Virus record (IMG/VR): IMGVR_UViG_3300045988_187204 | Source of the DNA: a virus | Lineage: Duplodnaviria > Heunggongvirae > Uroviricota > Caudoviricetes | Strand: one strand, 5' to 3' | DNA: 43,880 bases | Shown here: positions 2,040 through 42,504 of the stretch, piece by piece | Layout of the letters: every line of letters starts with the position of its first letter | Position numbering within the stretch: position 1 is the stretch's first letter | Translations under genes and position numbers: made by a program | The notes under the pieces: model-generated | What the model was told of the DNA's origin: nothing | What the model saw: only the letters and a program-made list of their open reading frames with translations | The model's database searches: none

Positions 2040-3938
2040 TTACGACATCATATAAAAATATCCTGTATAGATAGGCTCAATCTGGTCATCCTTGACCTCC
2101 ATCTCTATTTTTTCGCATACGAATTTTTTGTTGTGTATGATGTATGTGTGAGATGGGTCAGGGATGGTATCAGATTTGAACTTGACCTGAAGGCAGTTTT
2201 TGTTGTCTATCTTGAGACCGCTGTCGTGGAGCTCACCCAAACAGGTTCCTGCTTGCCAAGCCTTGTTTAGGGATAGGGAAGCCATCAGAACGGTTGGAAA
2301 CGTGCCAATATTGCCAGGATCGAGAAACTCCATCCTATACATGGAATTGATGCGGCTGTCAGTCATGAACTGCGGCCATCTGGACTTCTCCCCTACCCAT
2401 GAGACGTTGCCATTGAGTGGGTGTTCGTATTTTTGAACTTTGCCAGGCACTATGAAAAACACATTCATGCACTCCTGGTCATCCTCGGAATCATCCAAGG
2501 TGGACTCATCATCGATGGCATCCTGTATGGAGACGTAGTTGTAGCCATCCTCGTCTGTGTCGCCCTCTTTGGCTTCGGCTTCTTTGTCGTTTGGCATAGA
2601 CAGGAGGCAGCGCCATTCGCTGTGTTTATCCTCAAAAAGAAAAGACCTAAAGCTAACATTTTCCACGACCTGTGCTGCTGGGGATATGTTGAGGTCTGTG
2701 TAATCATCGGAGGAGTTATCCCTTATCAGTGGCGACCAGACACCAGCCAACTGCCAGCTCTTGTTGCCGTCGGTATCCTCGACATATATATAATAATCGC
2801 TGCCCAGATGACGGATGATGGTGGTGCGCTTCTTCTTCTCGGACCATCCACTGGTAGTGGCAGGAAACTGAAAGTTGGTACCAACGGCTGTCTCGAACGA
2901 ATCGACTATATCGAAATTATCAAAAACTTTTTTGGGAATGACTTCGTAATCACCTCTGTTGGCTGAGTCGCCTAAGTTGTACTGCAGGTTGGCTGTCGAT
3001 GAGGTTGAGAACGAACCATCGGCATCGTAGTCGGTGGTGTACTCGTCGAGTGTCTCTATCTCTACGGAGTCGGCGGATGATAGCTCTGAGGACTTGATGA
3101 CCTGACAAGTCTTTTTGATGTCGTCGAAGTATATGGTGGCGTTGAAGAGCTTGCGGAACTCCTCGATGAAGGTGTAGCTAGTCCAATGAGGAAGGGCACG
3201 GCGAAGCTCTAGGGTCTTGAAGGCGGAGGCGATGTAGAGCAAGTTCCATGGAGAAACATCGAGGTCGTTGCGTGTGAGGGTGTAGCCCTCGTAGGCGATG
3301 ACTCGCTTGAAGATGTACATCAGGTTGGGCTGCACGGCGACGTTGCTGATGTATGGATCTTTGCTGCCTATGAAATTGCCCGTGCGGTCAACGCCCACGA
3401 AATTGGCTATCATGTCGTTGGTCTCGTCTCTGACTGGCATGAAGCACCACTTGCCCTGCTCGCCCAGAAACTTGCTCTGGTCGGCGACGAGCCTATAGAC
3501 GGATTGAACCTTGGGGATGTTTTTCCAGCCCTGTGAAAAACCTTTATCTACCGTATAGCCTGGTGCGGATGCCTTGCCGAAGTCTATCTCGTCGATGTAG
3601 TGCTTGGTCATCTTGTCGTTGAACTTGATGCGAGACTTGCCGCCCACTATCTGAAGCTTTATCTCAGAGTCGGTGACGCTGATGATGGTACCCACGCCAG
3701 AGAGTACCAGGCGACCGCTCACGTAAAGCTTGCAATCGTTGTAGGTCTGGGTGGATTTGGAGACATCGAAGCGGCTCACGTTGTGGAAAACTCGGCGGTT
3801 GGGCATTATTGCCATGGGGAAATTGATGTCGTAGGAGTATTCGCCATCGTCGGTGACGTATTGGTTGGCGTATGTGAGCTTGATGGATTGGCTGGCAGCC
3901 GGGTAGGCTGCCATGCCATTGATGATGCATGTTATCAT
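2040..3938 (-). CDS. Phage tail-associated structural protein downstream of the tape-measure gene (distal tail / minor tail candidate)
   Basis: 632-aa ORF with ATG at 3938, directly following the tape-measure gene on the same strand; no motif recognised. Confidence 0.45.
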   Translation of the reverse strand: MITCIINGMAAYPAASQSIKLTYANQYVTDDGEYSYDINFPMAIMPNRRVFHNVSRFDVSKSTQTYNDCKLYVSGRLVLSGVGTIISVTDSEIKLQIVGGKSRIKFNDKMTKHYIDEIDFGKASAPGYTVDKGFSQGWKNIPKVQSVYRLVADQSKFLGEQGKWCFMPVRDETNDMIANFVGVDRTGNFIGSKDPYISNVAVQPNLMYIFKRVIAYEGYTLTRNDLDVSPWNLLYIASAFKTLELRRALPHWTSYTFIEEFRKLFNATIYFDDIKKTCQVIKSSELSSADSVEIETLDEYTTDYDADGSFSTSSTANLQYNLGDSANRGDYEVIPKKVFDNFDIVDSFETAVGTNFQFPATTSGWSEKKKRTTIIRHLGSDYYIYVEDTDGNKSWQLAGVWSPLIRDNSSDDYTDLNISPAAQVVENVSFRSFLFEDKHSEWRCLLSMPNDKEAEAKEGDTDEDGYNYVSIQDAIDDESTLDDSEDDQECMNVFFIVPGKVQKYEHPLNGNVSWVGEKSRWPQFMTDSRINSMYRMEFLDPGNIGTFPTVLMASLSLNKAWQAGTCLGELHDSGLKIDNKNCLQVKFKSDTIPDPSHTYIIHNKKFVCEKIEMEVKDDQIEPIYTGYFYMMS

Positions 3939-3971
3939 AAACTAATCATAAATGAGGCTTGATGAAAACCG

Positions 3972-6900
3972 TTATTTGTTTGACTTCATTTTTTGATATT
4001 GGCTCCATTGGCGGTCGAAGCCATCGGGGCCGGTGATGACCACGTATGACTTGATGCCAGCATCGAGCTGTTGGTTGAGTCGGTCGATGGTGTTATGCAC
4101 GCTATCGAGGGATGCGCCCATCTGTTCGGTGTCGCCACCTGTGACGTTGACCACTGGGGCGACCACGGCTGCGCTGCCTGTGCCCATGGCACGGCTCACG
4201 TCTTGTGCGGTGAGCGAGGCGACAGTGTTGTTGCGCTGCGCCATATCGATGAGCTGCAGGGCAGGGAGGAGCTGAGGATTGTTGACGGCGTTGTGGTTGG
4301 CGACGAACTCGCCAGCGTGAACCACGCCAGCCTCTTTCTTGTAATTGCCAGGACCAGTGAAACCACCCTCGTAATAGCCAGCCGCCTCTGCCTGGTGCTG
4401 CTTTTTGATTGTTGCTATCTGGAGCATGCCCGCTGCGGTGGCGAGACCTGCGGCGATAGGACCAAGGATGTGACCCACCACTGGGATGGCTGCGGCTGAT
4501 GAGTAGGCGTTGATGGCAGCCATGGCGGTTGAAGCTATGGCTTGTGCGATCTCTATCTTCATCGCCTTTTTGTTGGCCTTGCTCTTGGCTGCAGCCACCT
4601 CTTTGTCTCGCTTCGCCTCGAGTCGCTTTTTCTTGGCTGAGTTGTTGCCAGCGGCAGAAATCTGCTTATCGTAGTTTTTCTCGATCTTGGCGACCTCTAG
4701 GTCTGAGCAGGCCTGAGAGTAGGCGGAGGCAGCGCCCATCATCGTGTTGATGCTGCTGAAGGCAGCGCCAGCGATGGAGGCTATCTCTTGATAGGTCTCT
4801 TTGTTCATCTGCTTTTTGGCATCTAGATAAGCCTGTTCGCTGATGTTGCCATCTCTACGTAGCTTGTCTAGATTATCGTTGACCATCTTTTGCTGTTGGA
4901 TGGCTGCGATGGCACCACCTGCGATTGTGGCGAGGTTGTCGCTGCCCATGGCATTACTGTTGTCGCCGTTGCCCTTGGTCATCTTTTTGGCGGTGTCGAG
5001 GGCGGTGTTGGCATCCTCTTTGCGCTGCTCGTCGGCGGTAGGCTTGTATGAGGCGTATTTGTTGGCGATGCCCATCTTTGTGCGCTGGTATTCCTCCTCT
5101 CTGATGAGACCTGCCTTGTAGATGGCTTCGAGCCCCTGCAGCTCTAGTTGCATCTGCTCTTCGTTGCCGAGCTTGCCGTATTCTTGGCGCAGCTGAAGGA
5201 GTTGTTCGTCGTGTTGCTTCTGAAGGTCGTATTTGCGTTGCTGTTGGGTCAGCTCTCGCTCTTTCTCGATCTGGGCGTACTCGTCAGATGAGGAGAGGTA
5301 GAGGGCTTGCTTTTTGTTGAGATAGTCCTGGTATGAGAGAAAGAGAGCCTCGTTGACGGCATCCTCATTGTGATAGAGGTTGGAGTCTTTGTTGTAGTAG
5401 TCTGCATTGAGCTTCATTTCTTTTTTCTGTCGCTCGGTCTCCAGGGCTTCGAGGTCGGCGGTCTGCTTCTTCTCGTAGTCGGCGGCGATATTCTCTTTCT
5501 CGGCGCTCAATCGCTTGTACTCTTCGCTCTCTGCCTCGCCATACTTTTTGAGGATGTCGAGGCGAGCCTGAAGCCCCTGCTCTTTGATATTCTTCATCTT
5601 CTCGTTGTATTCGGCGAGTCGAATCTGCCCCGTAGCGTAGAGTGTCTTGGCATCTAGCTCTTCGGCTTGGTTGGCTTTCTTGGCATCGTCTAGCTCTTTT
5701 TTCATGTCGGCCTTGCGCTTTGCCTCTGCCTTGCGAGCCGCAGCCTCACGCTTCTTTTTCTCCTTCTCGGCAGCCTTGCGCTCTTTCTCGGTCATGGTAT
5801 GACCAGAGGAAGGGGTGACGGGTGTCTCAGTAGTTGCGCTATTGTTTAGTAAATTCTTCTTTACAGTCTTGTTGTACTGTTTCTGTAAATTAACGTTTTT
5901 CTCTAATTGCTGATTATAGAAATTCTCTTCAGCATTGACTTTTTTTTGCAGGCTTAGGTTTGCCTGTAGTCTTTGCGTATGAATTTGCTTTTGCTTCTCG
6001 TTGCTCTTCAGTGCCTCGTTTTGTTCGATGAGCTGACCTGTCCATCCATCAGCCACGGCATTGCTCTCATATTGCTTAGGATGAGCCTTGCGCTCAGCAT
6101 CGACAGCCTTCAGAGAATATCGTATGCGGCTCTCTTTTTGTTTGAGTTTCAGTTTCTTTTTATTGATTTCCACTTTGCGTTCATAGATAGCTTCTGCCAT
6201 GGCAGCATTCTCTAGCTCCTTGATGTAGTTTTGGATGGCAATCTGATTGTCGTTATACAACTTGCCCTCTTTGGAGATAGAGGCGTGATATTCTGGGACG
6301 AGCTTTTGCATATTTGCGATAGCTTGCTTGCGCTCGTCAACGGTATAGGCATTGGAGTGGATAACCTTGTTGAGCATATCGACCTTGTTGCGCTCATCGA
6401 GGGTAGCATCAGACACTTTTTTGGCGAGGCTGGCTTGAGCCTCTGCCACAGCTCTGTTGTTTTTAGCCTCTTGCGTGTTGTTGCGCATCGCCTCATTGTA
6501 AGATGTTATGGCTTTGTATGCCCCATAGGCAGCCACGCCCACAACGGTGATTACCGTGGCGAGGGCAGCCCATGGATTGGTGAGACTGGCTAGGCGTGCC
6601 GCCCTCATCACCACGATGTAGCCCTGTATGCCTTTTGTGAGATAAGCCCATGTGGCTTGCAGTGCCACTAAGGCAGCACGCAAAAGGGTAGAAGTTGCAG
6701 CACAAGCTTTATCGACAGCTGAAGCGTATTGCACAGCGGCAGATTTAATCTTAATAGCGATTGTCTCCTTGTACCAGAGAGTAGTACAAACAGCGATGGC
6801 TGTTGACAGCACGGCTATTTGTTTGGCATAGGTGACGGTGAAGGTGATGAGTGTGGACATGACCTTTATAGTCAGGCTGAACGACGTGATGCCATATTTC

Positions 6901-8318
6901 ATGGCAGGGATGAGTTTCTCGCCAAGTTCGATGGTGAGGTCTTGGAATCGCTTCTTGGCCTTGTCTAGCTCTGCCTGAACTGTTGTGTTTTGGGTGTTGA
7001 ACTCATTGAGCACACTGGTACCATCGGCATAAGACTTGGTGGCGATGTCTTGTGCCTCCCTAACTTGGTCGAGGTGTGTAGCTACGGCGGAGAGCACGCC
7101 CACGGCACGGGTACCGTTGAGCTGCATCTCTTCGAACATCGGTGCCATCTCTGTGAAACCTCCCTTCGACTTCATCGCTTGCATGAACTTCATCAAGCCC
7201 TCGTTGGCGTTGGTCTTCATCAGGTTGGAGAACTCCTTGACCTGCATGCCCGCTATCTTGGCAAACTTGGCTGGCTCTTGGTACATTTTTGTGATGAGCT
7301 GTGAGAAGACTGTGGCGGAAGTCGCCTCCTCTTGCATGTTTTGGTCGAGGGCAGAGGCGAGACCCATCAGCTGTGCCTGGGTCATGCCGGCCTGGATGCC
7401 GACACCTGAGAGGTCGGCGGTGAAATCGACGATGTAGCCAGCGTTTGCAGATGAGCTTTGTGCCAGCTCATTGACGGCGGAACCTGTGGCGAGCATCGCA
7501 CCACGAAGGCCTTTGGTCTTATCCTCACCAAACATCTGGGCGAGCTTGCCGATTTTATCGACCGCCCCCTTGCCGAGGTCATCGCCGAGGGCGACATTGA
7601 TTTTGTCGGCACCATCAACGAACTCCTCGATCATCTCTTTGCTGGTGATGCCGAGGCGACCGGCAGAGCCAGCCAGCTCGTTGAGCTGCTCACGAGCTGT
7701 GCGGGTATCCATGCGCTTGAAGTCCTCGTTCATCTGATGAACCTGTTCGTCGGTCTGACCGGTGTATTTGCGCACGTCTGCCATCGACTCCTCCATGTCG
7801 GCATAGGCTTGGGCTGCAGCTCTCAAAGTAAGAGTGAGTGTGGTGAGACTGCCCAGTATCTGGGTGAAGGCACCCCAGTTTTTGTTAAGACCATCCCACA
7901 TTCTAGAGAACAAACTTCTGGAAGCTTTACCTTCGTCGTTGATGTGCTGCATCTCTGCTCGCACTTGCTTTAATTGCTTTTGCAGTTTTTTCCATTCGTC
8001 TGAGTTGCGCTTGATGGCACCGCTTTTCAACTCTCTGTTGAGAGCCTTGGCGACTAGTTGCAGCTCCTTGTATGATGCAGAAGAAAGATTGTTGAGAACT
8101 TGGTTAACCTTCTCTTGGCTAGTCATGTATGCTTTTGTCTCAGCCTTTAATCTCTTTATCTGTCGTTCGAGGGCTGTTGTTGACTCGCCCTTAGCATAAG
8201 CCTCGTCTCTGGCTTTTTGCACTTCTTTCAGCTTGTTTTGCAATTCGTTGAGTTTATCCTTAGCCTCTTTGGTGTCAAGAATAACTCTGCTAACATGGGT
8301 ATCTGTATTTGTTGCCAT
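3972..8318 (-). CDS. Tail tape measure protein
   Basis: 1448 aa; long K/E/A/Q-rich coiled-coil stretches, central hydrophobic block (…LSTAIAVCTTLWYK…AALATVITVVGVAAYGAYKAI…), Gly/Ala-rich C-terminal region; ATG at 8318 checked. Confidence 0.7.
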   Translation of the reverse strand: MATNTDTHVSRVILDTKEAKDKLNELQNKLKEVQKARDEAYAKGESTTALERQIKRLKAETKAYMTSQEKVNQVLNNLSSASYKELQLVAKALNRELKSGAIKRNSDEWKKLQKQLKQVRAEMQHINDEGKASRSLFSRMWDGLNKNWGAFTQILGSLTTLTLTLRAAAQAYADMEESMADVRKYTGQTDEQVHQMNEDFKRMDTRTAREQLNELAGSAGRLGITSKEMIEEFVDGADKINVALGDDLGKGAVDKIGKLAQMFGEDKTKGLRGAMLATGSAVNELAQSSSANAGYIVDFTADLSGVGIQAGMTQAQLMGLASALDQNMQEEATSATVFSQLITKMYQEPAKFAKIAGMQVKEFSNLMKTNANEGLMKFMQAMKSKGGFTEMAPMFEEMQLNGTRAVGVLSAVATHLDQVREAQDIATKSYADGTSVLNEFNTQNTTVQAELDKAKKRFQDLTIELGEKLIPAMKYGITSFSLTIKVMSTLITFTVTYAKQIAVLSTAIAVCTTLWYKETIAIKIKSAAVQYASAVDKACAATSTLLRAALVALQATWAYLTKGIQGYIVVMRAARLASLTNPWAALATVITVVGVAAYGAYKAITSYNEAMRNNTQEAKNNRAVAEAQASLAKKVSDATLDERNKVDMLNKVIHSNAYTVDERKQAIANMQKLVPEYHASISKEGKLYNDNQIAIQNYIKELENAAMAEAIYERKVEINKKKLKLKQKESRIRYSLKAVDAERKAHPKQYESNAVADGWTGQLIEQNEALKSNEKQKQIHTQRLQANLSLQKKVNAEENFYNQQLEKNVNLQKQYNKTVKKNLLNNSATTETPVTPSSGHTMTEKERKAAEKEKKKREAAARKAEAKRKADMKKELDDAKKANQAEELDAKTLYATGQIRLAEYNEKMKNIKEQGLQARLDILKKYGEAESEEYKRLSAEKENIAADYEKKQTADLEALETERQKKEMKLNADYYNKDSNLYHNEDAVNEALFLSYQDYLNKKQALYLSSSDEYAQIEKERELTQQQRKYDLQKQHDEQLLQLRQEYGKLGNEEQMQLELQGLEAIYKAGLIREEEYQRTKMGIANKYASYKPTADEQRKEDANTALDTAKKMTKGNGDNSNAMGSDNLATIAGGAIAAIQQQKMVNDNLDKLRRDGNISEQAYLDAKKQMNKETYQEIASIAGAAFSSINTMMGAASAYSQACSDLEVAKIEKNYDKQISAAGNNSAKKKRLEAKRDKEVAAAKSKANKKAMKIEIAQAIASTAMAAINAYSSAAAIPVVGHILGPIAAGLATAAGMLQIATIKKQHQAEAAGYYEGGFTGPGNYKKEAGVVHAGEFVANHNAVNNPQLLPALQLIDMAQRNNTVASLTAQDVSRAMGTGSAAVVAPVVNVTGGDTEQMGASLDSVHNTIDRLNQQLDAGIKSYVVITGPDGFDRQWSQYQKMKSNK

Positions 8319-9506: not shown

Positions 9507-10118
9507 TTATTTCACCACCTCTATGTATCTCGAGTAATCAATCTTGGAGTGGGGATTGTGGCTGACTATCTGCACCTGATAGCCCTTGGTGCCCCATCGC
9601 CACCAGAGGAACTTGTGGCGGTAGGTGCGGCTCACGATGGTCGTCAGGCTGTCTCGAGACGAGTACTGGCACTCTCGCTTGGGGATGTCGATATGGAGGG
9701 AGAGCCATTGGTCTCGGTAGGTGTAGATGGAATCGGGGATGCCGGAACCAGCCACGGCGGCGGTCGGTTCGGGCGTGAGATAGACCGTATCGGCGGTGGT
9801 TGACGAAGCTGTGTGGATAGACTGCACATCTTTGAGCCGCACTTTGAGGTCTTTGATGAGCTTGGTATCGGCGAGGTGGAGCTTTTGCAGCTCGTCGTAT
9901 TTCGACTGAAGGGCGTTGAATATGGCGACATTGAGAGTGTCTCTCACGTTGGCATATTCAATGTCGTAGTTGAGGTTGGCAACGTTGTAGCTCTGTCGGT
10001 CGAGGTCTGCCTGAAGCTGCTCGCACTTGTTGGCGGAGTGTATGAATGCGACTGCGGTCACGATGAGCAGGGCTGCCAGAAGCTGGATGATAATCTTGGG
10101 TGTAATCTTTTTTGTCAT
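9507..10118 (-). CDS. Lysis-associated type II membrane protein (spanin-like candidate)
   Basis: ORF track 9507..10205; start refined to ATG at 10118 (MTKKITPKIIIQLLAALLIVTAVAF…); N-terminal TM anchor then coiled-coil-like region; immediately downstream of the endolysin. Confidence 0.4.
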   Translation of the reverse strand: MTKKITPKIIIQLLAALLIVTAVAFIHSANKCEQLQADLDRQSYNVANLNYDIEYANVRDTLNVAIFNALQSKYDELQKLHLADTKLIKDLKVRLKDVQSIHTASSTTADTVYLTPEPTAAVAGSGIPDSIYTYRDQWLSLHIDIPKRECQYSSRDSLTTIVSRTYRHKFLWWRWGTKGYQVQIVSHNPHSKIDYSRYIEVVK

Positions 10119-10147
10119 TGTCTTTTTGAAAATGATTGGTGAGTGAG

Positions 10148-10573
10148 TTATGCGATGTCTTTGTATTCGTCGATGGCATTGAAGCAAGGACACATCTTCT
10201 TCCATTTGGACTTGTCCTTGCCCCAGATGTCACGATGGCCCATTATCTGGGCATCTGGGAATTGTTGCTTCAGTTTGTGGAGTAGCAAAACGAGGGCGTC
10301 TTTTTGCTCTGGTGTGCGGTTGTCGATAGCCTTGCCCTTAGCGTCGATGCCACCGATATAGGCGACGTTGATGGCTGTGGAGTTGTAGCCCTGCACGCCG
10401 TTGCTCACCTTTTCGATGGCTAGGAGTTGGTGGATGCCGCCGTTTGGGGCGATGACGTAGTGATAACCTGGATTGGTCCAGCCCTTGCGGCGGAACTCTG
10501 CCTTGAGGTCGTCGATGGACTGGCTTTGCGACCCTGCGGTGCAGTGAACGAAAATGCGTTTAATCTGTCTCAT
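10148..10573 (-). CDS. N-acetylmuramoyl-L-alanine amidase (Amidase_2/PGRP-type endolysin)
   Basis: ORF track 10148..10627; start refined to ATG at 10573 (MRQIKRIFVHCTAG…); motifs IFVHCTAG, GYHYVI, MGHRD typical of T7-lysozyme-like zinc amidases. Confidence 0.8.
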   Translation of the reverse strand: MRQIKRIFVHCTAGSQSQSIDDLKAEFRRKGWTNPGYHYVIAPNGGIHQLLAIEKVSNGVQGYNSTAINVAYIGGIDAKGKAIDNRTPEQKDALVLLLHKLKQQFPDAQIMGHRDIWGKDKSKWKKMCPCFNAIDEYKDIA

Positions 10574-10814
10574 TATTTTGCTTGTTATGATTGAACAATT
10601 TGTTTTTGATGTTGTTGAACTTGGCATCGATGGCGATGGCTACGCCGAAGATGGAGCCGGCATACATGAGCGACTGGGCAAAGTACCAGAGCACATTGTC
10701 GGTGACATCACGAGCCTGGGAGGTGAAGTAACTGATGTAAACCAGTATGATGGCGAGGAGGAGCACGGCGATGGCTGAGCCGTATTGTATCCATTCTTTA
10801 GTATTTCTCTGCAT
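10560..10814 (-). CDS. Holin candidate (two TM segments)
   Basis: ORF track 10560..10844; start refined to ATG at 10814 (MQRNTKEWIQYGSAIAVLLLAIILVYISYF…LMYAGSIFGVAIAIDA…); overlaps the endolysin start. Confidence 0.55.
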   Translation of the reverse strand: MQRNTKEWIQYGSAIAVLLLAIILVYISYFTSQARDVTDNVLWYFAQSLMYAGSIFGVAIAIDAKFNNIKNKLFNHNKQNNETD

Positions 10815-10841
10815 GGTGAATCTTGTTTTTGTTTTACAGTG

Positions 10842-10849
10842 CAAAGATA
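10842..10849 (-). promoter_or_regulatory. Putative -7 promoter element (TATCTTTG on - strand) for the lysis cassette
   Basis: + strand GTGCAAAGATA; same extended motif recurs upstream of many - strand genes (20700, 26063, 28748, 37676, 38817). Confidence 0.35.
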
Positions 10850-10861
10850 AGAAGGGTAGGG

Positions 10862-10901
10862 TGATAATAAAAATACGAGACCGCCCTAACGATCTCGTAT
10901 T
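10862..10901 (-). terminator. Intrinsic terminator (- strand) after the gene ending at 10915
   Basis: Stem AATACGAGACCG / CGATCTCGTATT (11 of 12 bp, same stem sequence as the 8371 hairpin), then U-rich tract on the - strand. Confidence 0.45.
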
Positions 10902-10914
10902 ATATGTTTAACTG

Positions 10915-11322
10915 TTAGACCTCTCTTGAGAGAATCTCCTTGGCTATCTCTTTGGCCTCTTTGCGCCACGACTGATAAGCCTCGAACTCTGCCTCGTGAG
11001 TCTCGTCGCCATCGCCACGGTTGGCTAGGATGGCCTCTACCTGGTTTTGGCTGTATCGGGTGCGAACCAAACCAGCGGTGAAATCGTCGTAGGTGGCTGC
11101 GGTCGCCTGAATCTTGGTCGAGCCATCAGGCTCTGTGCCCTCATAGCTGTAAGCAGTGACACCCTCGGAGTTTTCATCTTCTGACTGCTCTGAGGTATCG
11201 GAAGAGCCTGTAGCGGCCTCAGGGTGATAGTTTTCAACTTTCTGCTCACCAGTGTAGAGCAGATAATGGTTATCGTCATATTTGACGAAGCTCTTGCGAG
11301 CTAGATAATACTTCTTGTTCAT
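10915..11322 (-). CDS. Hypothetical acidic protein downstream of the DGR reverse transcriptase
   Basis: 135-aa ORF, D/E/S/T-rich (…SSDTSEQSEDENSEGVTAYSYEGTEPDGS…); 6-nt spacing from the RT stop suggests co-transcription. Confidence 0.45.
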   Translation of the reverse strand: MNKKYYLARKSFVKYDDNHYLLYTGEQKVENYHPEAATGSSDTSEQSEDENSEGVTAYSYEGTEPDGSTKIQATAATYDDFTAGLVRTRYSQNQVEAILANRGDGDETHEAEFEAYQSWRKEAKEIAKEILSREV

Positions 11323-11328
11323 AATTGA

Positions 11329-12972
11329 TCACGTGAATTTATAGAACTTCTTTTTGAATTTATTGTGAAGCTCTGCGACCACGGTGGAGAAGGGTAGCTC
11401 ATCACGACAGAAGTCGTTGAGGGCTTGGTCTATCAAGATCTTGGAGCCTGTATAGAGGTAGTGCTCCAGAGGTTGCCATACCTCGGTGCCGTCTGGCTCC
11501 AGGTGGTCGATGATGCGATAGCGTAGGGAGAGGCGCTTCTTGGGCACCTCTTTGGTGACCATGTGGGTGGAGCCGTCCGGGGCGGTCTCCTCTTGCTGGA
11601 TGGTCTCCTTCTCTATCACCGAGTCATCGACCTTGTAGTCTATCACTTGAACGAGGAACTTGTTCTCGTCCTGACCCTCACGGCAGATGATGTCCTCGAT
11701 GGACTGCTGCTGTGATTTCTCCATACCGTCAAAAGGCACGCGCGCACGGCGAGCCTTGACGAGTTTACCGAATCTTTCCATACCGATTTTCTTATATAAG
11801 TTTTTAGAGTTTGCGTGGATGCCCAGACCTAGGCGAGAGGCTGCCTTGAGCTGTATCTGGCGGTCTGTGAAGCCCGCCTTGCGTAAGTTGGCGATCTGTC
11901 TGCAGAGGTCGTGCTTGAACCGCTTGCGCAACAGGGCGTGGTCGGCGTAGATGATCTGACCGCAGAAGTCGATGCCATCGCAGGTGCGGTGGATACCCCA
12001 AGACTTATTGATGGATAGGTGCCAGTCACGGGCGAGGTGCATCACGGCAAGCTCTGCCATCAGCCTGAGGAACACCTTATCCTCGTGGAGGATGTAGATG
12101 TTGTCCATGAAGCGGTAATAATGGCGAAGACCTTGGCGGCAGAAGCGCTCGAACCTATCGTTGAGCGACTTCACTCCCCCGCATAGCAGTTGAGCTTGCT
12201 GCTGAGTGCGACAGGTAACGAGCATGTCGATCACGTAGCGAGCCTGCCAGTAACGGAACTTGTCGGTGTCTTGGAGAATGTCGAAGCATCGGAGTGCCAG
12301 GTAATCGAAGCGGGCGAGGAAGAGCTGACCCAAGAGTTGGGCGAGCTTGACGCCGAGCACGATGCCTGGATTGAAGCTATCGACCACCTCGTCGATGAAG
12401 GCGAGGAGCTTGCGGTCTTTGATCTTGCGGCGATATTCACTTTTGAGAAGAGCGTGGTCTATGCTCTGAAAATAATGGTGAATATCCATGGGCAAGCAGT
12501 AGAAGGTATCTTGCTGTGGCGAGTTGAAGATGTCTCGCTTGACAAGATTATAGAAATAATGGGTGCCCTTGCCCTTGGAACCAGCCGGACTGTGGCTGTA
12601 GAGTGTCTTGCGAAGGTTATCCTCTACAGGTTGCAGGGCAGCGTGCTGGATGACGTGGTCGATAACGGGCAGCTTGTTGACTTGGCGATGTTTTGGATAG
12701 TCGATATCTTTGGCGACATAGGCTGAGGTATGCCAAGTTTGTTGGGTGTAAGCATCGAGCATGCGTCCGATGTTATGGTCTAGGTTTGCCTCGAATTTTT
12801 GGACCGCACGGCGAGACATCTTTTGTCGGGCGTAGTCATAGAATGCCCGACGAAAGTTGTCTAGTGTCTCGACCTGTGGCGATATGTTGCCAAACCTTTT
12901 CATAAGCGGTGTAATGTCTGTGTTGAACGGTGTATAAACTGTGTATAGTCTGAATCGTCTGCTTTTGTACAC
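11329..12972 (-). CDS. Reverse transcriptase of a diversity-generating retroelement
   Basis: RT-like motifs in order: YFQSIDH (motif 2-like), GIVLGVKLAQLLGQLF (motif 4 with the DGR-typical [I/L]Gxxx[S/A]Q in place of QGxxxSP), RFMDNIYIL (motif C position), GIDFCGQII (motif 7-like); TR lies 140 bp upstream. Track start at 12972 is GTG; first in-frame ATG is at 12903. Confidence 0.85.
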   Translation of the reverse strand: MYKSRRFRLYTVYTPFNTDITPLMKRFGNISPQVETLDNFRRAFYDYARQKMSRRAVQKFEANLDHNIGRMLDAYTQQTWHTSAYVAKDIDYPKHRQVNKLPVIDHVIQHAALQPVEDNLRKTLYSHSPAGSKGKGTHYFYNLVKRDIFNSPQQDTFYCLPMDIHHYFQSIDHALLKSEYRRKIKDRKLLAFIDEVVDSFNPGIVLGVKLAQLLGQLFLARFDYLALRCFDILQDTDKFRYWQARYVIDMLVTCRTQQQAQLLCGGVKSLNDRFERFCRQGLRHYYRFMDNIYILHEDKVFLRLMAELAVMHLARDWHLSINKSWGIHRTCDGIDFCGQIIYADHALLRKRFKHDLCRQIANLRKAGFTDRQIQLKAASRLGLGIHANSKNLYKKIGMERFGKLVKARRARVPFDGMEKSQQQSIEDIICREGQDENKFLVQVIDYKVDDSVIEKETIQQEETAPDGSTHMVTKEVPKKRLSLRYRIIDHLEPDGTEVWQPLEHYLYTGSKILIDQALNDFCRDELPFSTVVAELHNKFKKKFYKFT

Positions 12973-13111
12973 TTGATAACCTTCGACCGGATGACCGTGT
13001 TGTCATCATCTACCAGCTGTCTTATTAATGTGTATGTATCGCCATGGGGCGAGGATTGACCCTGTAATCTCGAAGTGGGAGCAAACGACCCACGAAGAGA
13101 TATGTCTGTAA

Positions 13112-13233
13112 GTTGAGGGCGGCGCCGTAGTTCACATTGGCATTCGAGACAGCATTGTTCACGTTGAGCGTCGAAAGACCGCATTGACCACCATTGTTAG
13201 CGTTAGCACCACGAAGGCAGACACGAAAACCGG
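13112..13233 (-). repeat. DGR template repeat (TR)
   Basis: About 122 bp matching 13523-13644; across 13115-13233 all 12 differences are at TR adenines (sense strand), 0 of 97 non-adenine positions differ. Confidence 0.9.
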
Positions 13234-13267
13234 CACCTAGGGTCACACCCTGGTATCATAACCGCCG

Positions 13268-13275
13268 CAAAGGTA
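13268..13275 (-). promoter_or_regulatory. Putative -7 promoter element (TACCTTTG on - strand) upstream of TR-RT
   Basis: + strand CAAAGGTA at 13268-13275, about 35 nt upstream (- strand sense) of the TR. Confidence 0.35.
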
Positions 13276-13471
13276 ATAAAAATAATCGGTATGGAAGCAT
13301 GTCAAAGAGCTTTTTTGATGTTTTTATTGATATTTTTTTTGTCGCCGACCGCCACAGGCGGTAACTTAAGGCGAGCTACGCTCGCTGGGTGCTTCGGCTT
13401 CGCCGAGGGTGCTCAGGTCTCTTTTGCACACCCAGTAAACCGATGCACACCCAGCAAACTGATGTAGTCTT

Positions 13472-14944
13472 TTAGGCCGCCTCGTAATACACGGGTTCAA
13501 CGGACCACTCGGATGCTGCTTCGCAGAGGGCGGCGCCGAAGTCCACATTGGCATACGAGACAGCAAAGCTCACGTAGAGCGTCGAAAGACCGCACCGACC
13601 ACCACTGCAAGCGTTAGCACCACGAAGGCAGACACGAAAACCGGATGTAGCGCCGCTAGTATTCCAGAAATAGCTAGTCCAATAGGTTGACTCGGATGCG
13701 CCCGTGGCGGTCGGGAAGTTCTCCAGATGCTCCATCGAGAGCGTCTTGATAAAGCCTTCGCCCTTGGTCGGCGAGGTGCTGTAAGCCACCATGCCATCGG
13801 CGGAACCTATCGTCCACGTGCCGTAGATGGACGGTGCCACGAGATGGGTCACGGAAGTGTCCTCGTTGCAACGCACCTGCTCGTCATCCATGTGTCGCCA
13901 CAATAAGCCGAAGCCATTTTTGTAGCCGAAGAAGGATGGTATCTTGGCGGTATAGACCACGGTGCCATCGTCTTTTTTGACCTCGTAGCTCGCCTCGCCG
14001 CAAGCGTCGCCCAGCTCGATGCCGGCAGACATCGGCACGATAGGGCGATAGCCGTTGTAACCACCCCAATCAGGCATCTGTGTCACGCCAGCTCCGAGAC
14101 CACCCTGGTAGAGACCGTTGGCATCTTTTTGGCTGTTGATGGCATCCTGGTCGTAGTGGGTGCCGAAGATGACCCCGAAGAGCACGGCGATGGCAGAGGT
14201 GTGGCGCATGGTGGTGCAGAGCCAGCCTGTACCATTCTTGCGGGCTGCGGCACGCCAGTATTCGGTAGTCTGGTTGGTGGCAGCCTTGCCCAGCATGGTG
14301 CGGTTGGTGTTATCTAACGTTGAGTCGTTGTTGCCGCCTCGGTAGTCTGTGCCCTCGTTGATGTAGCTCACCAGCTTGCCTGTGCTGCGCTCTAGCGTGG
14401 CGAAGCCAGCGGCGGAGATGCTGCCCACAGGTATCTTGTAGTTGTACTCGCCAGGTATTGGCGTAGGGCTGACCATCTCGTAATGGAGTCTGCCCACGGT
14501 CTTGATGACCATGTACCACTCCTTGCCCCAGCCCCACTGGTAATGCCCCTCTGAGCCATCGAGCTTGGCTGTCTCGCCGGTGGCATACTTGTGGTGGTCT
14601 TTGGAGTCGAGCTTGCGACGGGAGTGGTCATTCTTGACCAGATAACAGCCCAGACCCAGCTCCGTTGGTAGGGTCTGCAGTAACTCTAGCGAGCCCACAT
14701 AAGTGGCGGCTTTAGGGGTTGCATTGTCGAGGTTCCACACTCGACCACACCAAGGATGCTGTCCCATTTGGACGGCGCTTTTGAGCGACATCTGCTCAGA
14801 CCTGCCGGATTTTTTGTCGAAGACCTCGACAATCTTGTCAGTGGCGCTCATGTCTGACTGTGGGAGGTCGTCAACCTGTTGACCTCCATCGAAAGCGGCT
14901 ATGATAGCCTTGAGCTTACTCTCTTCTTCTGATGTTAATGCCAT
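13472..14944 (-). CDS. DGR target (variable) protein; C-terminal variable region, likely receptor-binding virion protein
   Basis: ORF track 13472..14992; start refined to ATG at 14944 (MALTSEEESK…); C-terminus …GFRVCLRGANACSGGRCGLSTLYVSFAVSYANVDFGAA… is the VR (TR encodes …GFRVCLRGANANNGGQCGLSTLNVNNAVSNANVNYGAA…); C-lectin/FGE-like fold is inferred, not shown. Confidence 0.85.
   Translation of the reverse strand: MALTSEEESKLKAIIAAFDGGQQVDDLPQSDMSATDKIVEVFDKKSGRSEQMSLKSAVQMGQHPWCGRVWNLDNATPKAATYVGSLELLQTLPTELGLGCYLVKNDHSRRKLDSKDHHKYATGETAKLDGSEGHYQWGWGKEWYMVIKTVGRLHYEMVSPTPIPGEYNYKIPVGSISAAGFATLERSTGKLVSYINEGTDYRGGNNDSTLDNTNRTMLGKAATNQTTEYWRAAARKNGTGWLCTTMRHTSAIAVLFGVIFGTHYDQDAINSQKDANGLYQGGLGAGVTQMPDWGGYNGYRPIVPMSAGIELGDACGEASYEVKKDDGTVVYTAKIPSFFGYKNGFGLLWRHMDDEQVRCNEDTSVTHLVAPSIYGTWTIGSADGMVAYSTSPTKGEGFIKTLSMEHLENFPTATGASESTYWTSYFWNTSGATSGFRVCLRGANACSGGRCGLSTLYVSFAVSYANVDFGAALCEAASEWSVEPVYYEAA
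13523..13644 (-). repeat. DGR variable repeat (VR) inside the 3' end of the target gene
   Basis: Direct alignment with the TR (offset 411 bp); ends 17 codons before the stop at 13472. Confidence 0.9.
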
Positions 14945-14966
14945 AATAAAAATTATATTTAATCGA

Positions 14967-15731
14967 TTAAACAATGCGTAATTTATCACCAACTTTTCTA
15001 AGCTTGCCCGATGCCGACAGGCGAAGGCGAGGCTGGCGCACGGTGATGCTGACCTCTTGCCAGAGCGGTGTGTTGGCGGTGGGGATGACCCAGAACTTGG
15101 TGGTGCCCTCGCCCTTGATGATGAGGTTGCCGCTTGGGTCTGCCACGAGCGAGTCGCCCTCGGCTCGCTGGAAGAGCACGCTCTGAGGGAGGTAGCTCGG
15201 CAGGATCTGCACGGCGATGCGCTGAGCCACCTTGTTGCGTAGGCTTATCTCGGGGAGATAGGTCAGGTTCATGCGAGCTGGCGCGATGAAGCCTGTGGTT
15301 ATCTGAGCGGCGAGACCATCCATCTGCGCTATCTTGGCATCGGCTCGCTTGGATGCCGCGTCAGCCTCTGCAGCCTTGGTCTCTGCCAAGGCTGCCTGTG
15401 ATGCTGCAGCCTCGCCCTGCTCGCCAGCCGCCTTGGCTGCGCTCTGGGCGAGGTTAGCCGCCTTGTTGGCATCGTCGGCCGCACCCTGCGCTCTGACGGT
15501 CGGTGTCTTGTCGAGCCACAAGCGCCACTTGGCGTTGGTATCTGAAGGAGTCGTCGTGTTGCCATCCTCTAGGGAGGCGAAGACTCCTGACGATGTGTGA
15601 ACGATGTCGCCCTCGTCGTAGCCCTTGACGGTCTGGCCATCCTCATCTTGATAGGAGTAGCCCGACTGCCAGGTGCCCTGGTCGGTGAAGGCGACATTGC
15701 CCACGATAATGATGTTTGTGTTATCTGCCAT
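14967..15731 (-). CDS. Virion protein in the tail-fibre cluster (Ala/Gln-rich central segment), function unassigned
   Basis: 254-aa ORF, ATG at 15731; immediately upstream of the DGR target gene. Confidence 0.45.
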   Translation of the reverse strand: MADNTNIIIVGNVAFTDQGTWQSGYSYQDEDGQTVKGYDEGDIVHTSSGVFASLEDGNTTTPSDTNAKWRLWLDKTPTVRAQGAADDANKAANLAQSAAKAAGEQGEAAASQAALAETKAAEADAASKRADAKIAQMDGLAAQITTGFIAPARMNLTYLPEISLRNKVAQRIAVQILPSYLPQSVLFQRAEGDSLVADPSGNLIIKGEGTTKFWVIPTANTPLWQEVSITVRQPRLRLSASGKLRKVGDKLRIV

Positions 15732-39550: not shown

Positions 39551-42504
39551 CTAGAAAGGTTTATCACTATCTTTATCTACCTTGCTCCAGTCAATGGTAG
39601 ATTGATATTCACCCCCAGCTGCAGGGACATCAGCCTTGGCAGCTTGTTTATCCTCTTTTTTATCATCACTCTTCTTGCTTCGGAGATAGATCATCTCGAC
39701 AGGGCTGCCGTCTGGGTTAGCTGGATCGCGTCTGATGATGCGGTGCTGGCTGTTGCAGAGATCAGCTGGGTTCAGCTCTTGGATGTATGGACACAGCTCG
39801 ACGAAGGCTCTGAGCTTTTTGGTGAAGCTCTGTGTGGTCGCCTTGTTGATGCCTGAGAACTGCTTGAAGTCATTGAACGCACGCTCTCTCACGATAAATG
39901 TATCGAGTCGCTCGCTCTCTTCTGAGAAGTAGGATGCAGCCCAGTCTTCGAAGTTGACACCCATGTCGGCCTTGAACTTGCGCTTGATGATGTTATCCAT
40001 CGGTGGCATGATCTTGATAGGTTCGCCAGCCAAGGAGAGATAGAAACGACAGCACTGCAGGAAAAAGTTGATGTCAGCATTCCACTCATCCTCAGTGTAT
40101 GTCTTTGAGAAGAGATCTTCGTCGAAGTCATCACGGATGCTTCGGGTCTCTTGGTAATCATTCTCCTCTGTGCGCTGATGGTAATAGTCGGAGAACACCA
40201 TATAGAGCAGTCTCGCCTCTGAGGAAGGGTCGAAGTCTGCCGGCACGTAGTTGGTGGTGAAGGCAATCTTCGGGCTATCCTCGAAAGGAATTGTGAAGCT
40301 CTGGTTGTTCTTTGGGTTGACTGTCATATCTGAAGTAATGTTATCGTAAAATAAACCTGTGTTGAGATAGCGGTCACAGTCATCGAGGAGCAGCATCTGG
40401 GTGTGCTGTGTCACCTGATCGAAGACGTGTGGGTTGTCCATCAGCTTAGGGTTGCGTCCGGAAAGCTTGACTGTTTTCATCAGCAGTGAAAGCGTCTTGA
40501 AGAAGAAACTCTTACCGGAACGGCCGTTGCACTCGTTGTTTTCACCAATCTTGTTGTCCATCGCCATCGGAGCCCAAGCCCTGGATGGTGCCTTGTAATG
40601 ATGGAGCATGTAGCCGAAGGTGAAAATCTTGTTTATCAAGTTCTGCTTTTGCTCTTGTATCTCGTTGTCGGCAAGCCCTTCGCCAGCGATGTCGAAGAGG
40701 TGTGCCTTGTGGTATGCCTCTTTCTCCTCGATGCTCTTGTCCTCAAAAGCATACTCTAGCTCTTTGCGCCAGTAGGTGCGAGAGGCGTTGATGAGATAGC
40801 CGAAGAAGTGGGACTTCACGTTCTTGACCTCGATGTCGAACTTCGGCCTGCCATCCTCGTCGATGGTTCGTGTGATGGAGAACATGTCATCCAACTTCTT
40901 GAAGTTGTGGTTGATGACATTCTCTTGCCAAACATAGTTTTTGAGCGAGCTGCCCTCACGCTGGTACTCGTTTAGTCCATCTTTGGTGACCTCGACGCTG
41001 ACACGAGGGAAGAAGAACAACTGCGAGTGGTTGGTGTAGCTGGTGAAGTCTAGCGTAATCTCTTGGAGCGAGTCGAGCGCCGATGCCGACAGCTTTGGCG
41101 TGTTGAGCACCAAGTTAAGGATGTCACGCTTCTCAGCTCTCTCGATGACCCATTGGCGGCAGAACTCACGGATGTCTCTCGTGGTGATGAGCTTGACGAT
41201 GTTGCCCGTGATGCGAACATATTTGGTGATGGTCGAGTTGTCATCGTGCAAGGTATAGAAACCATTGAGACGAAGAAAATTGTAGAGGCACGCCGTGTCG
41301 ATGTAGTGGTCCCAGGTGTTAGCCTTTTTGTTGAGCTTGCTCACCCAAAATCGGGCTGGCATCGCCAGTGTCATGAGGTTGCGGAAGTCTTTGCGAGTAT
41401 TGCGCAGCTCCATCCAGTCTCGCAGGTCTTTGCGCCCCTTGCCACGGTTGTCGTGGTAGGTGCGAAGCCAAGAAGGCAACCATATCGTATGGATGTCGAT
41501 GAAGCGCAGGGCAAGCTCTGTGCCCTTGGCGATGCCCGTCTCGTCGATGTCGGGTATATTGTAGAGCACCTCGACATACTTCATAATCTCTCGGTACTCC
41601 TCGTCGCTGAGCTTGTAGGTCTCGGAGTTGAACCATAACGGGTTGTAGCCCATGGAACGGCAGCAGAGACTGTCACGCTCGCCACTGCAGATGAAAGCCT
41701 CGGGAAGTTTCTTCTCCTTGTAAGGCTTGGACTCGTCTGTGTTGGTCTTGTTGTACTCAGCCTCTTCACGGCGGTTGAACTCGTGATAGGCAGCCTTCAG
41801 CTCAGCTAGGCCATTGATGTATTGCTTAGGCTTGATGCCGTCTGGGGTGTAAGAGAATCGCCACTGCTTTTGGTAGTTGAGAGGCTCATATATCTTGTAG
41901 AACTTAACCTCAGGCTTGTCGCCTTCAGCTGGGCGAACCAAGCACTCACGCATAAAGATAGGGTAGTGCTCGTTGCTGTGCTTAATCTTGACCTTGCGGT
42001 CTTTGACGTATCCTATCCACTTGGCGGAATGCCAGTTGAGTGCATCGACGTGCTCTTGCTTGACGTTTGGACCCAGTACCTTCAGTTCATCCTCGGTGAA
42101 CTTCTCGTTCAGCTCGAAAGGTCTGGTACCATCTTTCTCGTTGATGGTGGCATCACGCTCTGTGAATGTAGGCTTGTTGACCTCTTTTTTGAGTTCATCG
42201 CTAACGTTGTATTCGGAAGCCAGTCTCAGGATGGCATCAGGAAAGCGGTCGATGCACTTCTCTCTCATGTAGAGGTCGATAGGTGACTCGGCAGAGCCGT
42301 CGCCGCCGAAGTCAGTCACTCGCCAGCAGTCTTTGAACTTTTTGAGACTGCAGGAAGGTGTTTTCTCATTGCGGATGGCAAAGTGCTTTTTAGGCGTGCC
42401 AGTCGTGCAATATTTCTGGACGCATTCTTTTGCGTCCGGGTATAGTGAGATGATGATGTCGAGACCATCATCTGTAGCTTGATAAATTTGTTCTGCTTTG
42501 ATCA
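39551..42504 (-). CDS. DNA primase / SF3-type helicase (P4/D5-like replication protein)
   Basis: ORF track 39551..42535 starts at TTG; first in-frame ATG at about 42504 (MIKAEQIYQ…); C-terminal half has Walker A …NECNGRSGKSFFFKTL… and Walker B …QMLLLDDCD…. Confidence 0.7.

Follow-up and report, generated by a model that had tools for sequence, protein, structure and literature searches.

We analyzed the 43,880-nt stretch of IMG/VR virus record IMGVR_UViG_3300045988_187204 (Caudoviricetes; the whole stretch is referred to as the window), which carries a diversity-generating retroelement (DGR) in which the gene for the reverse transcriptase (RT) is directly followed by an open reading frame (ORF) for a small acidic protein of 135 aa. 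We favor, at a probability of roughly 55%, the reading that this protein is a partner of the tail fibre, acting in its assembly or as a distal adaptor, and that the template repeat (TR) and the RT gene lie between the fibre gene and the gene of its partner. Specifically, the 135-aa protein would not be a substitute for Avd but the product of a small partner gene of a receptor-binding tail protein; in the phages with a DGR, the TR-RT unit would lie between the tail gene and this partner gene; and nucleic-acid handling of the type provided by Avd, as in Bordetella phage BPP-1, may be supplied in cis by an OB-like C-terminal domain of the RT. Wu et al. 2018 (PMC5758913) noted that their lineage 3 must work differently, and since then the mechanism of DGRs that lack Avd has been an unsettled question. 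The locus leaves this question unanswered but narrows the candidates: the obvious suspect, the acidic gene, also occurs without an RT, and the other candidate is the confidently predicted extra domain of the RT, which in its model resembles single-strand binders. The elements on which the argument is built are as follows:

14992..13472, minus strand: target gene of the DGR, encoding a 506-aa tail protein with a variable C-terminus (phrog_5302 'tail protein', E 4e-59)
13526..13644, minus strand: variable repeat (VR), a 119-nt direct repeat of the TR, 90% identical to it
13234..13471, minus strand: non-coding gap from the target stop to the TR, without an Avd gene; only ORFs of 56-66 aa touch it
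13115..13233, minus strand: TR, identified by its direct-repeat pairing with the VR
11329..12903, minus strand: DGR RT gene, read from the ATG at 12903 (524 aa; phrog_1423 'reverse transcriptase', E 1e-54)
10915..11322, minus strand: 135-aa acidic ORF, member of a large unnamed phage family, as seen from its homologues and their genomic contexts
10872..10901, minus strand: intrinsic-terminator-like hairpin with a 13-bp stem and a T-rich tail, closing the target-TR-RT-ORF unit

The evidence that carries this reading comes from the genomic surroundings of the protein family to which the 135-aa ORF belongs. We collected 196 loci with a family member from IMG/VR, ENA, Logan, JGI and GTDB genomes (loci are designated by L numbers and individual family proteins by P numbers) and classified them using an RT hidden Markov model (HMM), nine diverse RT queries, and a detector of TR/VR pairs. 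Our first, clade-specific RT HMM missed the RT of L102 and L103, and phmmer searches with the nine diverse RTs as well as a second HMM were added. The loci cover flanks of 6-7 kb, so that a more distant RT is possible in those loci scored as RT-less. When family members were clustered at 60% identity, ~10 of the 30 clusters included loci without an RT within at least 3 kb upstream (L096/L104, L116, L097/L098, L170, L172/L175, L185/L190/L192/L195/L196, L189, L191, and L197). In these loci, the family gene begins 2-160 nt past the gene of a large tail protein, which matches phrog_5302 in L096, L104, and L116 and phrog_14959, the giant Hankyphage-type tail protein, in L097, L172, L175, L191, and L197. 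No RT was found in the RT-less loci even at E <= 1, with positive controls scoring 1e-38 to 1e-108, and the TR/VR detector found no pair in them. One of the 60% clusters holds both the RT-less L170 and the RT-linked L182. What stays constant next to the family is a tail protein matching phrog_5302 or phrog_14959, i.e. the kind of protein that DGRs diversify, and an RT is found in most but not all lineages. Because a ground state in which the tail gene is directly joined to the family gene explains the clean junctions in ~10 clusters more easily than repeated and precise losses of TR and RT, we take this arrangement to be the probable ground state. Moreover, a gene that serves the RT alone should decay after loss of the RT, and the intact copies in RT-less loci, therefore, favor a fibre partner.

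The properties of the protein itself point in the same direction. The 135-aa ORF starts (ATG at 11322-11320) 6 nt after the stop codon of the RT gene (TGA at 11331-11329), and its product contains 27 D+E and 15 K+R, giving an isoelectric point (pI) of 4.63; the original prediction had described the ORF as lying at this distance from the RT and as strongly acidic, and both descriptions hold. Because 91 homologues of 120-142 aa were found in a word-indexed search (down to E 6e-17) and 573 clusters when a profile was run against 1.84 billion representatives (E <= 0.001; lengths almost always 90-150 aa), we conclude that the 135-aa ORF is a real gene. Distant members often match over the C-terminal 60 residues only, and the C-terminal motif of the family is Y..lVsAiIR.rYS.D.VEAI..N......H..E...lQ.WR..AK. 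Acidity is a family trait, with a pI of 4.72 +/- 0.27 in close members and of 4.86 +/- 0.75 in 104 diverse members. From single distant proteins less was recovered: tblastn of P0150 against phage records returned MT835875 alone, and scans for related loci from P0150 and P0101 found none. An AlphaFold model based on a 53-sequence alignment predicts an N-terminal beta hairpin of low confidence, then a disordered acidic linker, and lastly three C-terminal helices (pLDDT 80-94 in the helical part, mean 63). In Foldseek searches, this model had no match in the PDB (best E 4.3) and matched only uncharacterised phage proteins in BFVD, one of them from the crAss-like phage cr50_1. The ORF has no match in Pfam or PHROGs, HRDC and DUF4376 (PF14301) included, and scans of the 104 members against Pfam, PHROGs, and NCBIfam returned no named family; six members matched phrog_11557 and one matched phrog_19239, both of which are of unknown function. 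Longer members bear extra C-terminal modules, which are the carbohydrate-binding module CBM_5_12 (PF02839, precomputed annotation) in P0405 and the ORFs of L170 and L182, and a DUF4376-like module in P0107, P0108, P0380, and the ORF of L184. DUF4376 is probably tied to tail fibres, and both types of fusion would point toward the cell surface. Taken together, the acidic charge, the lack of a nucleic-acid-binding fold in the model, and the fusions to carbohydrate-binding and fibre-associated modules favor a fibre partner. The family thereby resembles small post-fibre genes such as those for tail-fibre assembly and those of the DUF4376 type, i.e. it lies directly downstream of a receptor-binding tail protein, is small and modular, and has fusions to DUF4376-like and CBM_5_12 modules. 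Unlike the named tail-fibre assembly families, to which we found no sequence or fold similarity, it may share with them a working mode, but not a membership.

Another comparison is with Avd, a small protein encoded next to a DGR RT. The barrel formed by Avd is reported to be built from four-helix bundles. The 135-aa protein is similar in size to Avd (bAvd of Bordetella phage BPP-1; 23S_rRNA_IVP family), is encoded next to the RT, and is probably co-transcribed with it. In contrast to Avd, it is acidic, is predicted to consist of a hairpin, a linker, and three helices, and has no match to an Avd model; also, the Avd gene lies between target and TR while the 135-aa gene lies after the RT. From across the window, 35 small ORFs, among them those of the gap and its surroundings, were scanned against Pfam and NCBIfam at E <= 0.05. 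The complete Pfam list for these ORFs (23 families) contains neither 23S_rRNA_IVP, the Avd-like family that we take to be PF05635, nor HRDC, and among the 25 of 37 NCBIfam families listed there is nothing Avd-like and no four-helix-bundle family. The gap itself, from the target stop to the start of the TR, comprises 238 untranslated nt (13471-13234), and the ORFs that touch it have 56, 58, and 66 aa, overlap either the TR or the last part of the target gene, and match no family. The original prediction that this gap is too small for an Avd gene and has no convincing ORF is borne out, and only its length of 225 nt changes, as that value was counted from the start of a spurious ORF of 73 aa running through the TR. 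Similarly, its statement that there is no recognisable Avd gene withstood the profile and structure comparisons that it had proposed for the 135-aa protein and the small ORFs: neither Avd nor HRDC was found, no ORF is conserved in the gap, and the model of the 135-aa protein is not a four-helix bundle. We conclude that the element is avd-less as far as profiles reach and that the 135-aa protein is, by profile, charge, and predicted fold, not an Avd. For comparison, Avd has a pI of about 9.5 and forms a pentameric barrel (PMC5758913).

DGRs with the order target-TR-RT and without avd have already been described, and there is no novelty in this aspect of the locus. Architecture A (TR-RT without an accessory gene) accounts for 29% of DGRs and lineage 3 lacks avd (Wu et al. 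2018, PMC5758913), and crAssphage LMMB has a target-VR-TR-RT layout without avd (PMC7290462). Like architecture A1/lineage 3, crAssphage LMMB, and Hankyphage p00 (BK010646), the window has target(VR), TR, and RT on one strand, neither avd nor HRDC, a phage tail protein varied at its C-terminus as target, and a small hypothetical ORF after the RT; the likeness to A1/lineage 3 rests on gene order, the core order target-TR-RT being present. In Hankyphage p00 (L117), a giant target, VR, TR, and a 434-aa RT are followed by a 161-aa ORF (40044-40529) that overlaps the RT stop, has a pI of 5.0, and matches DUF4376 above the Pfam cut-off (E 1e-6). This ORF has no detectable relation to the acidic family, hhalign comparison included, and, to judge from these comparisons, two unrelated small acidic families occupy the post-RT slot in avd-less phage DGRs. 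A module of the type of the Hankyphage ORF (DUF4376) may be fused to the acidic family in some proteins, in that hhalign of the DUF4376-like module with this ORF gave a probability of 46% over a VNGF..G..W core, which is suggestive only. From its size and charge and from the recording of its DGR as 12 duplicate copies, we infer that the Hankyphage ORF probably is the CH1 of Wu et al. 2018. CH1 (architecture E, lineage 3a) has 160-169 aa, a pI of 4.7 +/- 0.2, and no known motif, and it flanks DGRs without avd, HRDC, and MSL (PMC5758913). By description, the acidic family is similar to CH1 in being small, acidic (pI 4.72 +/- 0.27), and motif-less and in flanking an avd-less DGR; it is unlike CH1 in its length (135 aa, with 123-142 aa in the family, versus the 160-169 aa described for CH1).

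Several observations weigh against a fibre partner, and we considered whether the 135-aa protein is instead a true accessory factor of the avd-less DGRs of Bacteroidota phages, analogous to Avd or CH1, with a role e.g. in assembly of the RT-RNA complex or in delivery of the cDNA to the target. In 174 of the 196 loci, the family gene follows an RT ORF directly, starting within a few nt of its stop codon, and in 18 of the 30 clusters the family gene is exclusively RT-linked. The RTs of the RT-linked loci range from 100% down to ~30% identity and occur in varied phage backgrounds, namely Segatella copri, Prevotella, Alistipes, and Bacteroidales prophages (L105-L115), LoVEphage (L009), contigs of 108-125 kb with a 382-aa RVT_1 RT (L099-L101), and a phage whose target is a giant protein of 2338 aa (L102/L103). 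In L187 (5430-7827) and L188, the order is target-VR-TR-family gene-RT, which puts the family gene in a typical accessory-gene position. Within the clade of the window, the terminator follows the 135-aa gene, which would place it on a common transcript with the RT gene from which it is separated by the 6-nt spacer. There is also a precedent in CH1: for DGRs without avd, Wu et al. 2018 (PMC5758913) proposed this small, acidic protein, encoded next to them, as an accessory. Lastly, the loci were sampled by similarity to the family and are not exhaustive, and the putative fibre role, which is read from genomic context, has no fold match in the PDB in its support. On the other side, an accessory factor is difficult to reconcile with intact and conserved copies directly after tail genes in loci of ~10 clusters that have neither RT nor TR/VR within 6 kb, with an acidic protein whose predicted model has no nucleic-acid-binding fold, with fusions to carbohydrate-binding and DUF4376-like modules, and with Hankyphage, which has a related RT and an unrelated DUF4376 ORF in the same slot. 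We, therefore, regard an accessory factor as possible but doubtful. Accordingly, the alternatives left by the original prediction, an avd-less element or one with a different accessory factor, fared differently: the element is avd-less, as already known for such DGRs, while a different factor is possible but not the best supported explanation. The co-occurrence of homologues with DGR RTs, suggested there as a check, is found in the 174 RT-linked loci and fails in the RT-less loci of ~10 of 30 clusters; hence, the finding that was expected to speak against an accessory role, a conserved phage protein family, is largely what we see in the post-fibre, RT-less copies, and still most loci track DGR RTs. 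A more far-reaching version, which we regard as unlikely, is that the acidic family is a new and widespread accessory of avd-less phage DGRs that couples an RT with OB domain and F-x-D-N motif to the variable tail protein or to its gene, in a cassette switched by poly-G slippage.

The remaining alternatives dispense with a link to the DGR or with the absence of Avd. It is improbable that the acidic ORF is unrelated to both fibre and DGR and represents a lysis-cassette gene, a moron, or a DNA-mimic anti-defence gene. Small acidic phage proteins are often DNA mimics, and in the window genes for a holin-like membrane protein, an amidase, and a DUF6549 protein come next; however, a terminator separates the acidic ORF from the lysis genes, and the downstream genes change by lineage (holin and amidase in the window, thymidylate synthase (thyA) and methylase in L090, tape measure in L094) while the upstream tail protein, with or without an RT, is constant. 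On the basis of the intervening terminator and the variable downstream genes, we rejected a role in the lysis cassette. We consider it improbable, too, that an Avd escaped detection through strong divergence, a very short length, or a location in the gap or elsewhere in the phage or its host. A weak Pfam match among the small ORFs of the window to Cytochrom_B562, a four-helix-bundle family (E 0.006), would fit a missed Avd; this match was not traced to its ORF, and we suspect that it stems from an alanine-rich 254-aa protein encoded upstream of the target. A 146-aa ORF of L102 (4058-4498), which lies between VR and TR and thus in the classical Avd position, would fit as well; it has no assigned family and no Avd profile match, and the L102 phage also has an acidic-family gene after its RT. 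Avd sequences, moreover, are very poorly conserved (Wu et al. 2018, PMC5758913). Against a missed Avd stand the profile scans, in which PF05635 was unmatched in the 35 ORFs at E <= 0.05 and nothing Avd-like appeared among the 25 of 37 NCBIfam families listed, the small size and overlaps of the gap ORFs, and the gene calls of related contigs, which contain no consistent gene between VR and TR. Also, Wu et al. 2018 looked for remote avd genes in the genomes of avd-less DGRs and found none (PMC5758913).

The cassette into which the 135-aa gene is built is a genuine DGR with the layout target(VR)-gap-TR-RT and without Avd. Its genes are all on the minus strand, in the order 506-aa ORF, gap, RT ORF, 135-aa ORF. 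In the coding-strand alignment, TR and VR differ by 12 mismatches over 119 nt, and 12 of these 12 are at TR adenines. Because differences restricted to adenines, with the A always in the RT-side copy, are the signature of DGRs, the RT-side repeat is the TR and the other one the VR. The VR ends 54 nt from the stop codon of the target gene. Both repeats terminate in GGCGCCGCCCTC and diverge beyond it, i.e. they have a GC-rich shared 3' end resembling the initiation of mutagenic homing (IMH) sequence. By eye, the gap contains GC-rich inverted repeats and, just 5' of the TR, a candidate Bacteroidota -7-like box (TAccTTTG). The terminator hairpin lies 14 nt past the stop codon of the 135-aa ORF; of 194 related loci, 131 have a hairpin in the same place, though with another sequence. 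By this prediction, the 135-aa gene is the last gene in the transcription unit, with a strong terminator after it.

The RT gene has three further features that bear on how the cassette may work:

12100..12111, minus strand: RT motif C, which reads F-M-D-N in place of Y-x-D-D in the sequence
12174..12180, minus strand: interrupted poly-G tract, GGGGGAG, within the RT gene; the homologous tract varies from G5 to G9 in relatives
11332..11736, minus strand: C-terminal extension of the RT, predicted from a structure model to be beta-rich and OB-like

The RT ORF is open from a GTG at 12972 (12972..11329, 547 aa), and translation probably begins at the ATG at 12903, which yields a protein of 524 aa. 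The match to phrog_1423 spans aa 22-416 of the 547-aa ORF, and the ORF has no match in Pfam. Homologues of the RT (n=247) are mostly 510-550 aa in length and go down to 36% identity at 98-100% coverage, and the RT of the window aligns with DGR RTs. In motif C, the D and the N are each conserved in at least 90% of the 42 members of the RT clade, while sister DGR RTs keep Y-x-D-D; in the finger motif, the RT has LGVKLAQ versus the DGR-type [IL]GxxxSQ, alongside FMDN versus YxDD in motif C. In these loci, all differences between VR and TR still fall at adenines, and the RT has, therefore, evidently been active. In the RT clade of the window, an extension of ~130 aa beyond the RT match was modeled from 43 sequences with a pLDDT of 89. 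Its resemblance to OB-like proteins is supported by scores that are weak but have a consistent theme, i.e. single-strand binders, and the modeled extension is a reasonable candidate for an in-cis nucleic-acid-binding domain that does part of the work of Avd. By contrast, the RTs of Hankyphage (434 aa) and L099 (382 aa) do not have this domain and keep Y-C-D-D. Because the 382-aa RT of L099 is without both the domain and Avd, replacement of Avd by an OB-like domain would not be general.

We compared the poly-G tract at the homologous site in L001-L089 and L105-L160. The RT is intact where the tract length keeps the reading frame, and where it does not, the RT falls into two ORFs exactly at this site; the sub-clade L053-L068 has no poly-G tract. 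The split-RT loci L106, L109, and L110 retain 10-12 A-type differences in their VRs. This pattern suggests that slippage in the poly-G tract may act as an on/off switch of the DGR; alternatively, the variation could come from mixed populations or from assembly. A literature search turned up no report of homopolymer switching in DGR RTs. If confirmed on reads, the variable poly-G tract would suggest on/off control, and the D-to-N change in motif C an unusual active site. These side features of the RT concern very common gut prophages of Segatella copri. In L052 (4119-6149), the RT gene is interrupted precisely at its poly-G site by an insertion of ~2 kb, which codes for a 562-aa protein that is transposase-like by eye.

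The phage that carries the cassette is a temperate siphovirus with Segatella copri prophages as close relatives. Near relatives of it are integrated in Segatella copri and Prevotella genomes (L105-L110), and the host is probably Segatella. In L010 (IMGVR_UViG_3300045988_187506), the acidic ORF is 100% identical to that of the window and the neighbouring genes are 96-100% identical. The lysis genes that follow the cassette are in an unusual position, between the DGR and the gene for a 1448-aa tape measure protein:

9507-10844, minus strand: lysis cassette encoding a 94-aa holin-like membrane protein (phrog_8278), an Amidase_2 endolysin, and a DUF6549 protein

Further matches among the small ORFs of the window were to a RadC-like JAB protein, a phosphoribosyltransferase or ComF-like protein, an SLT transglycosylase, and a Cro/C1 HTH protein. 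LoVEphage (L009, MW660583) carries a DGR at 2414-6210, with the VR at 3570-3687 in a tail collar fibre gene, the TR at 3857-3974, an RT spread over several ORFs, and, after it, a family member; in the record, the DGR genes are labeled just as hypothetical proteins or as 'RT_G2_intron'. Finally, L104 contains at 8101-8221 an iteron-like array of 11-nt repeats of the TGCGAGAAC type, situated downstream of the tail genes in a stretch of 890 nt without genes.

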